Sequence record: PZ386980.1
Reading direction: 5' to 3' (one strand)
Length of the DNA: 64,000 bases
Source of the DNA: a phage
A model generated the notes under the pieces. The model did not search any database, was not told the DNA's origin, and saw nothing but the letters and a program-made list of their open reading frames with translations. A program made the translations under genes and the position numbers. Within the stretch, counting starts at the first letter, position 1, and the number at the start of each line of letters is the position of its first letter. This document shows positions 14,436 through 19,236 of the stretch, in pieces.

Positions 14436-14855
14436 TTATGCTAAAGCTGCTTCGCACCATTTTTTAATTTGGAATTCAGGAACTACCATGAACTGGCCTG
14501 CAAAAACAATATTGTAGAGCTTGACACCATCTTCTACCCAACGGTCCGAAATAAAACCAGCGACTTGATTCGTTGTCCATGGAGTTCCATCTGTTGCCGC
14601 CGCAATTGTGAATTTATGGTCTTTTACAACTAAAACTGAAGAACAAAGTTTCCATTTAAATGCGCTTTCTTCTGGCTCAATGAACTGACTTGAGACATAG
14701 CCAATGTTACCATCAGCGTCACGAACTTTAACCTCGTTACGACCAAAAACTGGATCACTTACAGAAAGAACTTCAACCAGCTTTCCTGCAACTTTAGAAC
14801 GAGAAGCAACGGATACATATACGTAATCACCAGTAGAGAGATTTACAATATTCAT
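14436..14855 (-). CDS. paralog family member A (139 aa), unknown function
   Basis: shares C-terminal module GFISDRWVEDGVKLYNIVFAGQF and N-terminal SRSKVAGKLVEV with the next ORF. Confidence 0.55.
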   Translation of the reverse strand: MNIVNLSTGDYVYVSVASRSKVAGKLVEVLSVSDPVFGRNEVKVRDADGNIGYVSSQFIEPEESAFKWKLCSSVLVVKDHKFTIAAATDGTPWTTNQVAGFISDRWVEDGVKLYNIVFAGQFMVVPEFQIKKWCEAALA

Positions 14856-14864
14856 AATAATTCC

Positions 14865-15338
14865 TTAAGCTTTACGAGGAGAAGCATAACGAGTGATTTC
14901 AGATTCTTCAACAACCCGGAAGTCACCTAAGAATACGATATTGTAGAGCTTTTCACCATCTTCAACCCATTGGTCTGTGATGAAGCCACACATCCTATCA
15001 GTTTTACTTGGACCAGCGAAATCATCAATATAATCGAATTCTTCATCAGTTACAAATTCAACGCCTTTACACAACGCCCATTTAAATTGTGCATTAGACT
15101 CAGTGGATTCAACTTCTTCAACAGAAGTAAAATGAGAGCTAACACGAGTTTCCAGAAATTTAGGACTTACGTAAGCGTACTGAGTTTCAGTTTTTCCAGA
15201 ACTAGGAATGATTCGAACTTTAACTTCTTTAACACGACCAGTACCATTAGTACGAAGTCCTACCACTTCAACTAGACGACCTGCAGCTTTAGAACGAGAT
15301 GCAGACGATACACGCTTAATTTCACCGATAGTAATCAT
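14865..15338 (-). CDS. paralog family member B (157 aa), unknown function
   Basis: C-terminal GFITDQWVEDGEKLYNIVFLGDF; N-terminal SRSKAAGRLVEV. Confidence 0.55.
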   Translation of the reverse strand: MITIGEIKRVSSASRSKAAGRLVEVVGLRTNGTGRVKEVKVRIIPSSGKTETQYAYVSPKFLETRVSSHFTSVEEVESTESNAQFKWALCKGVEFVTDEEFDYIDDFAGPSKTDRMCGFITDQWVEDGEKLYNIVFLGDFRVVEESEITRYASPRKA

Positions 15339-15410
15339 AATTTTTCTCTCTTTGTTGTTAAGATTTATTCTCCATGAGAGCCATTATAACAGGCTCTCTA
15401 TAAAGTAAAC

Positions 15411-15920
15411 TTAATTAAGGATATTAATTACTGCACTGCGTGGAACTACACTAAAATCACCTGCATGAACAACGTTCAGAAGTTCAACACCATCTTCAAG
15501 CCACTGGTCAGTTACCCAACCACTTACTGGACCAGCAAATGGTCGACGAATTGAAACAGCTTTACACAACAAGTCAGTAGGCTCGATAGGCTTAACCAGA
15601 GTACCGTACATACAAGCAATGTCCATATCAAAGTGGAGACCAGTGCTAACAGGTGCTTCTTCAATCAACAATTCGAAATCTTGTTCTGTAATATAGACCG
15701 TAGATATTGTACCATATAAGTTTTTAATTCTTAAGAATGATACAGATGAAGCTGTGGCAGTTGATGCAAAAATAGGACCAGCATTTACAATAGTGAAACC
15801 TTTACCTTGGGTAACACCAATAAGCTCGCAAAACTTACTATAAGAACCATTATTTGCTTCAAACCAGTTTACTTGCTTTTCGTCTTTCAGGATGTAAGTA
15901 GCTGTAGTACTGATATTCAT
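15411..15920 (-). CDS. paralog family member C (169 aa), unknown function
   Basis: C-terminal GWVTDQWLEDGVELLNVVHAGDF; N-terminus unrelated to A/B. Confidence 0.55.
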   Translation of the reverse strand: MNISTTATYILKDEKQVNWFEANNGSYSKFCELIGVTQGKGFTIVNAGPIFASTATASSVSFLRIKNLYGTISTVYITEQDFELLIEEAPVSTGLHFDMDIACMYGTLVKPIEPTDLLCKAVSIRRPFAGPVSGWVTDQWLEDGVELLNVVHAGDFSVVPRSAVINILN

Positions 15921-16499: not shown

Positions 16500-17183
16500 T
16501 TATCGTTTTGTTGGAAGAGATAGAGGATCGCATTCTTCCTCTGATGGAGCGTCTTCAAGACCCATAGCATAGCGCAAAGCATACTTCATCATCAGGATGT
16601 CTTTCGCACAGTCATGAATAGAATCATGCGCAACGAATCCATCTAAAGTTCCTTTTGGAAGAGGACACGTGGTCATATCACGAACAAGGAGAAGTGCTTC
16701 AATTCTGGTACGAATATCACGCTGATTCCAGAATTTACATGGTTCTAACTTAAATGTGTCAAGCTCATTCTCGGAAACGCCGTTAAGACGTTGAATATCG
16801 CGAATGAGATCGACTAAAATTGGAAAATCAAACGACATTCCACGGCACCAGCCTTGAGATTTCCAAGGATCGATATTATGCGCATTGATGTAATCATTAA
16901 ATTTTGCAATACCATCGATAGTGCTTACATCTTCATCTGATGGCGCAATATTTTTTCGAGCTTCAGGAGATTGATTCTTCCACCATTCGATAGTGCTTTT
17001 AGTAAAAAGACGATGTCCTTTTTGGCTTTTTAAATCAAATTTGATTTTAATGCCACGTGAAACTAATTCATCAAATGTTTCAACGACTTCTGGATTAGGG
17101 TCAAAAGCAATTACAGCCAAATCAATAACAGCTGCTTTTTCACCGCTTCCCATTGTTTCAAAATCTATAATAAAATCAAACAT
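16500..17183 (-). CDS. dexA: DexA 3'-5' exonuclease A
   Basis: 227 aa, MFDFIIDFETMGSGEKAAVIDLAVIAF...; matches T4 DexA from memory. Confidence 0.9.
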   Translation of the reverse strand: MFDFIIDFETMGSGEKAAVIDLAVIAFDPNPEVVETFDELVSRGIKIKFDLKSQKGHRLFTKSTIEWWKNQSPEARKNIAPSDEDVSTIDGIAKFNDYINAHNIDPWKSQGWCRGMSFDFPILVDLIRDIQRLNGVSENELDTFKLEPCKFWNQRDIRTRIEALLLVRDMTTCPLPKGTLDGFVAHDSIHDCAKDILMMKYALRYAMGLEDAPSEEECDPLSLPTKR

Positions 17184-17440
17184 TAAATTTTCCTTGCTAA
17201 ATCGCGAATTTGACCTACAGTATAATCTTGGATATAAACTTTATTAATAGGCTCATCAATAAATTTTGCCATAGATTCAATATCTTTTTGTATCTCTTCA
17301 AGACTGTATACTATCTTTAAAGCTTTTTCGCGAATAGTAACATTATCAGGTCCTGGATTTTCTTGAATGACAGCTTTAACATTTGTCATAAGAGATTTAA
17401 ACTGGTACCAACTTAATTCAATCATTAATAATCGCCTCAT
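17183..17440 (-). CDS. small protein, tandem paralog 1 (85 aa)
   Basis: ORF track; shares LEEIxxDL ... DYxxGxI pattern with the next two ORFs. Confidence 0.45.
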   Translation of the reverse strand: MRRLLMIELSWYQFKSLMTNVKAVIQENPGPDNVTIREKALKIVYSLEEIQKDIESMAKFIDEPINKVYIQDYTVGQIRDLARKI

Positions 17441-17678
17441 AAAGATAGCTAATTTCGCCTAAAACGTAATCATTGATTGTAACAGTTTTCACTTCACCAC
17501 AAAAGAATTCTAACGCAATTAAATCTCGTTCAATTTCTTCTAATTGAAGCATCAACTTACTAGATTCAATTTTTACAGTTTCACGATTTTTACCATGAGC
17601 AATTTCATAAATTTCGCTCACTTTATCTTGAAGCAGATAAAACTGGTCTTTAGTTATTTCCACGAATAGCTTCCTCAA
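17418..17678 (-). CDS. small protein, tandem paralog 2 (86 aa)
   Basis: ORF track; same pattern. Confidence 0.45.
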   Translation of the reverse strand: MRKLFVEITKDQFYLLQDKVSEIYEIAHGKNRETVKIESSKLMLQLEEIERDLIALEFFCGEVKTVTINDYVLGEISYLYEAIIND

Positions 17679-17910
17679 ATTTAATTAGTAATTTACAGAC
17701 ACTTTCATCTAGTGTAATTACCGTATCTGTATTACTGTGATATGATTGTTTTTCAATTCGTTTAATTGCTAATATAGTATCACTTATAAGATAAAGCTTA
17801 TGAAGGAGCTCAGCTCCTGTTACCATAACATCGAGATTATCTTGCTTATTAGTATGCTTCCTTATACCATCTATTAGACGATTTAAATATTTTGAATTGA
17901 TGTTAATCAT
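17650..17910 (-). CDS. small protein, tandem paralog 3 (86 aa)
   Basis: ORF track; weaker similarity. Confidence 0.4.
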   Translation of the reverse strand: MININSKYLNRLIDGIRKHTNKQDNLDVMVTGAELLHKLYLISDTILAIKRIEKQSYHSNTDTVITLDESVCKLLIKFEEAIRGNN

Positions 17911-17916
17911 ATAGCC

Positions 17917-19236
17917 TCACACATAAAACACATCATAACGACCACGTGTTACACCAACATAAAGAAGCTGCTGAGCTAGTTCAGCATCTGCATAATGAAT
18001 ACAAGGCGTATAAATGAAAGCACGGTCTACAGACATACCCTGAGCTTTATGGAATGTTGATGCAGGAAGTGCTTTCACTTTACTAAACTGTGATTTAGCA
18101 TCCCAAAAATCACTCCACGGAGCCTTTCCGCCTTTATTCCAATTTTTATAAGTTTCTGCTGTTTTACCTAAAAACAGGTTAAACTTATATAGCTCTTCAT
18201 CAGATGAAATTATTTTAATCTTTTCACGATAATATTCATCATCGCCGTAAGTTTCTACTGTTAAATCCCAATGACGAATTAAGTATTCTCCAGGAACACC
18301 ACGAGCTTTAACAAACGTCGATGTATACTCTGCTTCTATAATACGAACTAATTGTCCATTATTAAAAATAATTTCTGATACAGGCTTTCCATCAATTTTA
18401 TATGTTTTAATTAACGGTTCTTGCATTACAATAATTTCACCGACAATAAAGTCTTTATCAGTTTCAAAAATCTTTTTACGAATAATGCTATTTAACTTGT
18501 CAACAGATTTATTCGTAAATGCCATTACGCGATTTTCAAACAAATCATCTAGTGATTTGACGATTGAAAAATAATTTACCATAAAATCGCGTAAAGCGGT
18601 ATCACCAGTAAATCCACGTACTCCATGCCCATCAACAACTTTATCATAAATCCATTTACCGTTGCGAACATCAGTAGCTACATCAATAATAGGAGCATTA
18701 CTGCGTTTAACTTCAGTAAGTTCACACTGATAAAAATCTTTGTGTGTAAAGAATGGACTGATATAAGCAGTATTTTCTCCTGGGTCAACAGGTCTAATTT
18801 GCTTATTATCGCCTATTCCAATTATAGTACACCACGGTGGGATAGTTGAAAGCAAAATTTTGAAGAGCTTTCTATCATACATTGACACTTCGTCGCAGAT
18901 TAATACCCTGCATTTAGCTAAATCTGGTACTTCTTTTTGTTCAAAAAGAACGTTTTCTTCATATGTTACTGGGTTAATTTTAAGAATACTGTGAATAGTA
19001 CTCGCTTCTTTCCCCGACAGTTTTGAAAGAATCTTTTTAGCTGCATGTGTAGGAGCTGCCAAAATGATACCAGTTTCACCCGTAGATATTAAAGCTTCAA
19101 TGATGAACTTAGTAAGAGTAGTCTTACCAGTACCAGCAGGTCCATTAATAGTTACATGATGTTTCTTTTCTTTAATAGCCCTCATAGCGATGTTAAAGGC
19201 GTTTTTCTGGCCTTCTGTCAAATCATCAAATGTCAT
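17917..19236 (-). CDS. dda: Dda DNA helicase (SF1)
   Basis: 439 aa, MTFDDLTEGQKNAFNIAMRAIKEKKHHVTINGPAGTGKTT (Walker A); matches T4 Dda. Confidence 0.92.
   Translation of the reverse strand: MTFDDLTEGQKNAFNIAMRAIKEKKHHVTINGPAGTGKTTLTKFIIEALISTGETGIILAAPTHAAKKILSKLSGKEASTIHSILKINPVTYEENVLFEQKEVPDLAKCRVLICDEVSMYDRKLFKILLSTIPPWCTIIGIGDNKQIRPVDPGENTAYISPFFTHKDFYQCELTEVKRSNAPIIDVATDVRNGKWIYDKVVDGHGVRGFTGDTALRDFMVNYFSIVKSLDDLFENRVMAFTNKSVDKLNSIIRKKIFETDKDFIVGEIIVMQEPLIKTYKIDGKPVSEIIFNNGQLVRIIEAEYTSTFVKARGVPGEYLIRHWDLTVETYGDDEYYREKIKIISSDEELYKFNLFLGKTAETYKNWNKGGKAPWSDFWDAKSQFSKVKALPASTFHKAQGMSVDRAFIYTPCIHYADAELAQQLLYVGVTRGRYDVFYV

Follow-up and report, generated by a model that had tools for sequence, protein, structure and literature searches.

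The window, the whole stretch of 64,000 nucleotides of phage DNA that was analysed (sequence record PZ386980.1), contains three consecutive small open reading frames (ORFs) on the minus strand between dda and dexA, at positions 17183-17910. The dexA-proximal copy is dexA.1 (17183-17425; 80 aa, 9.4 kDa, pI 5.4), the middle copy is dexA.2 (17418-17663; 81 aa, 9.5 kDa, pI 4.4) and the dda-proximal copy is RB14ncORF017c (17650-17910; 86 aa, 9.9 kDa, pI 7.9), further referred to as ORF3. All three small genes carry an annotation in phage RB51. The array is flanked upstream by the DNA helicase gene dda (17917-19236) and downstream by the exonuclease A gene dexA (16500-17183), both on the minus strand. 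Over the 3-kb stretch around the array, identity is 100% to phages RB51 and RB68 (genus Tequatrovirus), and many other T4-type phages match it at 97-98%.

The preliminary description of this locus, made from the letters alone, reported three back-to-back ORFs with overlapping stops and starts between dexA and dda, and both observations were confirmed. ORF3 and dexA.2 overlap by 14 nt, the 3' end of dexA.2 extends 8 nt onto the start of dexA.1 (ATGATTGA), and the TAA stop codon of dexA.1 overlaps the ATG of dexA by 1 nt (TAATG), dexA being translationally coupled to dexA.1. In T4, dda.1-dda-dexA.2-dexA.1 is reported to be a single middle-phase transcript (bioRxiv 10.1101/2024.04.04.588121). Scans for promoters, terminators and MotA boxes gave no signal within the array. 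The array is a set of three translationally coupled minus-strand genes, encoding products of ~9-10 kDa, within the dda.1-dda-…-dexA transcription unit.

The lengths of 85, 86 and 86 aa given previously apply to the maximal ORFs; for the products, the Shine-Dalgarno (SD) sequences favour 80, 81 and 86 aa. The gene dexA.1 starts with an ATG at 17425 (GAGG at 17438-17435) and dexA.2 with a GTG at 17663 (GAGG at 17676-17673), both with a spacing of 9 nt. ORF3 starts with an ATG at 17910, in a GAGG-N4-ATG arrangement that overlaps the dda stop codon. No GAGG is present at the matching position of the longer alternative starts (ATG at 17440, TTG at 17678). Because the SD positions favour the annotated starts over these longer ones, the products of dexA.1 and dexA.2 are most likely 80 and 81 aa long, as annotated.

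The co-oriented units have start-to-start spacings of 247, 238 and 242 nt. ORF3 and dexA.2 also end alike (…KFEEAIRGNN and …YLYEAIIND before the stop codon), following the pattern …(F/Y)E(E)AI…N(N/D), and the Glu codon(s) of both endings supply the GAGG that lies 9 nt before the start of the next gene. The 3' end of ORF3 (17650-17684, minus strand), consisting of the last 11 codons (IKFEEAIRGNN) and TAA, houses the SD sequence and GTG start of dexA.2. A tandem duplication of a unit comprising a gene plus the downstream translation start would leave such a repeat anatomy. At the DNA level no repeat is left among the three units, and homology among them is clear for units 1 and 2 and remote for unit 3.

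Sequence comparison clearly identifies DexA.1 and DexA.2 as paralogs (pairwise BLASTP, E 2e-10 with 30% identity over 83 aa). Both belong to phrog_1700 (E 4e-44 for dexA.1), and cluster representatives identical to the 80- and 81-aa proteins of the window carry a precomputed match to Pfam PF26837. Their T4 orthologs, DexA.1 (Y00G_BPT4) and DexA.2 (Y00H_BPT4), show 95-96% amino-acid identity and are alike in position, lengths, overlaps and SD architecture, with no notable difference. For dexA.1, pN/pS was 0.12-0.33 in most pairs and reached 0.71 in two low-divergence pairs. A loose pattern, LEEIxxDL…DYxxGxI, had been proposed for all three ORFs. It is indeed present in dexA.1 (SLEEIQKDI…QDYTVGQI) and dexA.2 (QLEEIERDL…NDYVLGEI), but ORF3 does not contain the motif LEEI(x)2D…(S/N/Q)DYxxGxI and reads KLYLISDTI…LDESVCKL at the aligned positions. 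A search of 1.84 billion representatives with a DexA.1/DexA.2 profile yielded no more than 10 proteins, each a close relative or a fragment, so HMMER cannot bridge to ORF3 or to other genera at that database scale.

ORF3 is intact in 309 phage records with an amino-acid identity of 80-100% (tblastn) and matches a PHROG family of its own, phrog_4967 (E 8e-59). Members of this family are annotated as hypothetical in RB51, RB68, RB14, Sf25, KNP5 and others, those of RB51 and RB68 being 100% identical to ORF3; in the databases it is an orphan family with no link to any other. Among five phages compared, pN/pS of ORF3 was 0.03-0.53 and mostly ≤ 0.37 in the pairs that exclude RB14, which is the range of dexA.1 and dexA.2, and synonymous changes exceed non-synonymous ones. 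Judged from this coding signature, ORF3 is a real gene.

The relation of ORF3 to its neighbours is visible at the profile level only. Pairwise BLASTP of ORF3 against dexA.1 or dexA.2 revealed no similarity (E 21), no precomputed Pfam match exists for ORF3 homologs, and a local Pfam copy, apparently lacking the PF26837 model, returned no match for any of the three proteins. All three ORFs match the small family phrog_5263 (E 0.0019, 2e-7 and, for ORF3, 1.8e-5). A family HMM was built from 15 members of eight genera, with ORF3 left out; members were added from the dda-dexA interval of Yersinia phage P8, Bp7, WG01, CkP1, Merlin, CC31, KP179 and LilPanda. This HMM scores ORF3 at 16.5 bits with an alignment from Met1 to residue 52. 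This score was never attained in 20,000 composition-matched shuffles, the best shuffle (16.0 bits) coming close to ORF3. Among the 374 ORFs of the window (stop-to-stop, ≥ 50 aa), the HMM ranked dexA.2 and dexA.1 highest, followed by ORF3 (rank 3, E 1.3e-4), and the next-best ORF scored 6.1 bits.

Profile alignment, proposed at the outset as a check on the kinship, gave a divided outcome. Using hhalign, residues 1-86 of the ORF3 alignment were matched to positions 1-83 of the wider family (P 3.6e-5 to about 5e-5) at a reported probability of only 45-63%, with six residues inserted into the α2-β2 loop as the one sizeable gap. Against a shallow profile of eight DexA.1/DexA.2 sequences from Tequatrovirus only, the match was not significant (E 0.21); significance was reached only once members from other genera had been added.

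Predicted structures point in the same direction. The AF2 model of DexA.2 (pLDDT 93) is composed of β(2-4)-α(5-24)-α(28-55)-β(60-62)-α(65-79) and that of ORF3 (pLDDT 85, with only two of five models above pLDDT 80) of β(2-5)-α(6-21)-α(26-52)-β(64-67)-α(69-84), so that the order of elements, β-α-α-β-α in a three-helix bundle, is identical in both predictions. When the ORF3 model was searched against BFVD with Foldseek, its own ortholog came first, followed almost exclusively by T4-like phage proteins of 76-92 aa. The TM scores were 0.69-0.77 for DexA.2-like proteins in general and 0.69/0.73 for a DexA.2 ortholog (probability 1.0); CC31 protein E5DI27 (TM 0.72) and a fused DexA.2-DexA.1 protein were also matched. 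The DexA.2 model retrieved largely the same set of matches, and the ORF3 ortholog was not found among its top 50. Two of the BFVD matches were checked for genomic position and both are located between dda and dexA, namely CC31p016 (80 aa, equal in length to E5DI27) and the adjacent Acj9p021/022 (71 and 92 aa, matching E5EPF5/E5EPF6) of Acj9, an Acinetobacter phage from another subfamily.

The three-helix bundle is very widespread among protein folds, and the likeness between ORF3 and DexA.2 could be convergent. Generic antiparallel three-helix bundles such as the designed sc-apCC3, the CheA P1 domain and the myosin VI lever-arm extension have no sequence relation to the phage proteins and no functional site in common with them, and this resemblance is functionally uninformative. 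Unlike these generic bundles, the phage proteins have an added two-stranded β-bridge from the N-terminus to the α2-α3 loop. The check for coiled coils, also suggested beforehand, came out negative, as the long heptad-repeat helices of an intermolecular coiled coil were not found. Overall, ORF3 is likely a remote homolog of DexA.1 and DexA.2, and we infer with good support that it belongs, in much more diverged form, to their β-α-α-β-α three-helix-bundle family. The initial view of a triplet of paralogs is upheld by BLASTP for DexA.1/DexA.2, where the similarity is well above chance; for ORF3 the kinship is detectable by profiles and predicted structure only.

Small ORFs at the same locus were identified in other T4-like genera, comprising Bp7 gp116, WG01 ORF14, CC31p016, Merlin gp16, CkP1_0014/0015, LilPanda gp124, Acj9p021/022 and a protein of KP179. 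They are 71-92 aa long with a like predicted fold and occur in one or two copies, not three. Where sequences were compared, identity was 40% between the Bp7 protein and DexA.1 and 32% between YenP8 ORF199 and DexA.2. ORF3 has no close ortholog among these proteins, its best match being YenP8 ORF199 with a weak 27% identity over 81 aa. In total, the number of copies between dda and dexA varies from zero (RB69, where dda directly adjoins dexA) over one (Bp7, WG01, Yersinia phage P8, Merlin, CC31, KP179, LilPanda) and two (CkP1, Acj9, T4) to three (RB51). Of the 11 genomes that have a copy, 10 show an overlap of 1-10 nt between the dexA-proximal copy and the start of dexA; the genes of KP179 abut, and those of Acj9 are separated by 11 nt. 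By these counts, the array has expanded over the T4-like family as a whole, and in this respect the preliminary proposal of an expansion is retained. Relative to T4 it does not stand, as the comparison suggests that T4 lost a gene.

As stated beforehand, the T4 genome carries just two small genes here, dexA.1 and dexA.2, and the window phage has one more; neither a general lack of pairwise similarity nor the ORF count of T4 was found. According to the RB51/T4 alignment and the T4 sequence, T4-type genomes miss the 232 nt at 17685-17916, which removes codons 1-75 of ORF3 and its ribosome-binding site. At the T4 junction (TGA, then TTAAATTTGAGG), TTAAATTTGAGGAAGCTATTCGTG… comes immediately after the dda stop codon; these are the last 11 codons of ORF3, unchanged. 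This retained stretch carries the SD sequence and start of dexA.2, and the 11 codons align to the C-terminal end of family helix 3 (hhalign). A 51-nt probe over the T4 junction detected 188 records, all sharing one junction. Together with the 309 records of ORF3, this equals the 497 records that have dexA.2 at ≥ 80% identity, so there are just two alleles at this locus in Tequatrovirus. The three-gene form is the commoner allele (62% of Tequatrovirus records). The dexA.2 of RB51 is closer to that of T4 than to those of other ORF3-bearing phages, so recombination has shuffled the indel. ORF3 of RB14 is frameshifted by an 8-nt tandem duplication (AAATATTT) in codons 6-8, which is a second, independent route to its loss. 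A two-step loss in T4 (an in-frame deletion of 222 nt between ATTAA repeats plus 10 nt) was considered and rejected, as a single 232-nt deletion explains the junction. Because T4 keeps the last 11 in-frame codons of ORF3, which fit family helix 3, the difference between the RB51-type phages and T4 is likely a loss in T4 rather than a gain in the window phage. The polarity of the deletion is inferred, and none of the outgroups carries a recognisable ORF3 ortholog.

Other accounts of ORF3 have to be weighed against this reading. It is missing from T4 and frameshifted in RB14, and proteomic evidence for it was not found, as would be expected of a spurious ORF; such an ORF would hardly combine a GAGG-N4-ATG start, a frame open in 309 records at 80-100% amino-acid identity, a synonymous excess with pN/pS down to 0.03-0.2 and a confident predicted fold, which makes this account highly improbable. 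Alternatively, ORF3 may be an unrelated orphan that entered the dda/dexA.2 junction by illegitimate recombination, the array then being a paralog pair plus a passenger. Its separate PHROG, the lack of BLASTP similarity to either neighbour, the missing motif and Pfam match, the modest profile statistics and the failure to find relatives below 80% identity in phage genomes and 5.8 billion proteins are all compatible with such an origin. We nevertheless regard it as improbable, given that ORF3 is the sole other ORF in the 64-kb window that is found by the family HMM (16.5 vs 6.1 bits), aligns end to end from Met1, has two short predicted β-strands in matching order, and resembles dexA.2 in unit length and in gene-end and SD architecture, while its BFVD neighbours are nearly all small T4-like phage proteins, those checked for position lying at this very locus. 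The direction of the indel can also be reversed, with the two-gene arrangement of T4 as the ancestral state in Tequatrovirus and the third gene as a later gain in the RB51-type lineage. The other genera sampled mostly have one copy, some have two, RB69 has none and none has three, and no ORF3 ortholog was seen outside Tequatrovirus, all of which agrees with a gain. However, a 232-nt insertion would then have had to continue in frame over 11 final codons that were already there, and precisely those 11 residues fit the end of family helix 3 and resemble the DexA.2 C-terminus (…YEAIIND vs …FEEAIRGNN). Moreover, ORF3 is far too diverged from dexA.2 for a recent duplicate, with the flanking DNA of RB51 and T4 being ~96% identical, all 188 two-gene records have one common junction, and the frameshift in RB14 shows ORF3 in the process of being lost. 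A late gain is accordingly judged unlikely, and loss of an existing third family member in T4 remains the preferred reading.

With respect to function, an NCBIfam scan and a PDB sequence search with the three proteins gave no usable matches (PDB noise only), the proteins contain no catalytic motif, and sequence and fold do not point to an enzyme. Charge differs strongly among the three proteins (pI 5.4 for DexA.1, 4.4 for DexA.2 and 7.9 for ORF3). A literature search on dexA.1, dexA.2, Y00G and Y00H found no functional study, and the searchable papers describe no phenotype for dexA.1, dexA.2 or ORF3. The DexA.2 protein was detected in T4 infection, conjugated to cGAS at Lys5 (PMC10097602), and expression of DexA.1 (Y00G) and DexA.2 (Y00H) in E. 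coli yields soluble protein (PMC8076793). In the latter study, an E. coli protein of ~9 kDa, not named in the text or the supplement, co-eluted with His-tagged Y00G; this protein could be a routine Ni-column contaminant. The small proteins may be accessory or regulatory partners of the Dda helicase and the DexA exonuclease instead of host-directed modulators. They keep their place in the dda-dexA interval in phages from Tequatrovirus through to Acj9 of Acinetobacter, they are co-transcribed with dda (bioRxiv 10.1101/2024.04.04.588121), and the dexA-proximal copy mostly overlaps the dexA start (1-10 nt). They are not obligatory Dda/DexA partners, because RB69 has dda next to dexA with no small gene in between; the copy number ranges from 0 to 3, and in sequence the small proteins change much more quickly than either enzyme. 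Genes whose starts and stops overlap are usual across T4-type genomes, which also counts against a specific partnership with these enzymes. Finally, what co-eluted with His-tagged DexA.1 was an E. coli protein, phage proteins being absent (PMC8076793). A role as enzyme partners is considered unlikely on this balance. Our preferred suggestion, that the proteins are small, non-enzymatic binders of host proteins, serving as dispensable accessories in host takeover or counter-defence, is put forward weakly and tentatively.

In the explanation that we consider best, one small gene in the dda-dexA interval, found across the sampled T4-like phages, would have been duplicated in tandem to give the array, and T4-type genomes would have lost the third copy in one 232-nt deletion that spared only the piece with the dexA.2 translation start; both steps have good support. 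The products are predicted to be soluble helical bundles of small size, produced in the early to middle phase of infection, with a putative action of binding and modulating other proteins, probably those of the host. Duplication followed by divergence (pI 4.4, 5.4 and 7.9) may widen the range of targets. Taken as a whole, from the coupled array and its duplication to the T4 deletion and the putative binders, this explanation is moderately probable. A further extension, in which the dda-dexA interval is a fast-evolving cassette of putative host-binding three-helix bundles whose presence and copy number reflect an arms race with the host and its defences, with paralogs of distinct charge neutralising different targets, is conceivable but rather doubtful.

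The locus is an ordinary, already annotated variable accessory region. All three genes were annotated before, the paralogy of DexA.1 and DexA.2 is captured by a Pfam family, and the RB14 and RB51 genome entries have marked ORF3 as not conserved in T4 from their deposition onwards. New here are the remote family link of ORF3, the likely direction of the indel together with its frequency in the population, and the survey of copy numbers. These genes are widely misannotated as 'dextranase' or 'exonuclease', and the significance of the results beyond annotation is small. An orphan family of ~300 sequenced T4-type phages, phrog_4967, is now tied, remotely, to the DexA.1/DexA.2 fold family, and the reference phage T4 most likely represents the deletion allele at this locus. 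If the proteins do bind host factors, the natural variation from zero to three copies would offer a handy route to their targets.

The proteins encoded by the dexA.1 and dexA.2 genes (window 17183-17663) are listed in the databases under several functional names. In RefSeq and UniRef, DexA.2 is frequently labeled 'dextranase' and both proteins frequently carry the labels 'exonuclease' or 'Phage exonuclease', and one T6 entry is named 'tail sheath stabilizer'. Neither the sequence nor the fold of DexA.1 and DexA.2 backs any of these designations, which appear to have been copied from the gene symbol dexA. Near-identical proteins are also found in deposits named after bacteria, namely Enterococcus faecalis, E. 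coli, Shigella sonnei and Salmonella (protein entries P0005, P0013, P0031, P0034 and P0049, among others). The Enterococcus faecalis deposit is a 2.2-kb contig and some of the proteins lie on contigs of approximately 165 kb; these bacterial-named deposits are T4-type phage genomes or contaminants within bacterial assemblies.

The Pfam family PF26837 is assigned to DexA.1 and DexA.2 homologs in precomputed annotations, whereas a local Pfam-A scan of the same proteins returned no match, even at E ≤ 1. Because the local scan was empty and the precomputed annotations were positive, the PF26837 model seems to be missing from the local library. The phrog_1700 profile (160 positions) covers both proteins, with DexA.2 at positions 1-80 and DexA.1 at positions 77-159. 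In at least one phage record, that of Escherichia phage ime09 (BFVD entry G1FHL1), dexA.2 and dexA.1 are annotated as one 159-aa protein, which may be a frameshift fusion across the 8-nt overlap of the two genes or an error.

In RB14, an 8-nt tandem duplication (AAATATTT) near the beginning of ORF3, the third gene of the dda-dexA array, causes a frameshift (RB14 record L017, ~790-810, corresponding to window ~17885-17895), which is due either to genuine decay of the gene or to an error in sequencing. All that the record annotates of ORF3 is a 58-aa remnant whose first residue is an internal Met. In the record of Shigella phage sb1 (L013), ORF3 has a premature stop (KFE*AIRGNN), dda is annotated as three CDS and the dexA.2 annotation is truncated, a combination that looks like the product of an error-prone assembly and not like a biological feature. 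In T4, the deletion junction creates a 12-codon mini-ORF on the minus strand (T4 record L002, 3375-3412; ATG ATT AAA TTT GAG GAA GCT ATT CGT GGA AAT AAC TAA, MIKFEEAIRGNN*). The start codon of this mini-ORF overlaps the stop of dda (gtATGA). Although probably without meaning, the mini-ORF exactly covers the ribosome-binding site of dexA.2.

Three neighboring MotB-like paralogs are located on the minus strand (window 14436-15920), presumably the first triplet of the preliminary description. The 139-aa ORF (14436-14855) shares 40% identity with MotB (14865-15338; E 1e-29), and motB.1 (15411-15920) matches MotB with an E-value of 2e-11, both having the C-terminal motif GxxTDQWxEDGxxLxNxV in common. 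The whole window contains 11 MotA-box-like middle-promoter patterns (TGCTTYA-N11-13-TANNNT) versus 2.2 expected, an excess that is usual for a T4-type genome; none of the 11 is located in the dda-dexA array.
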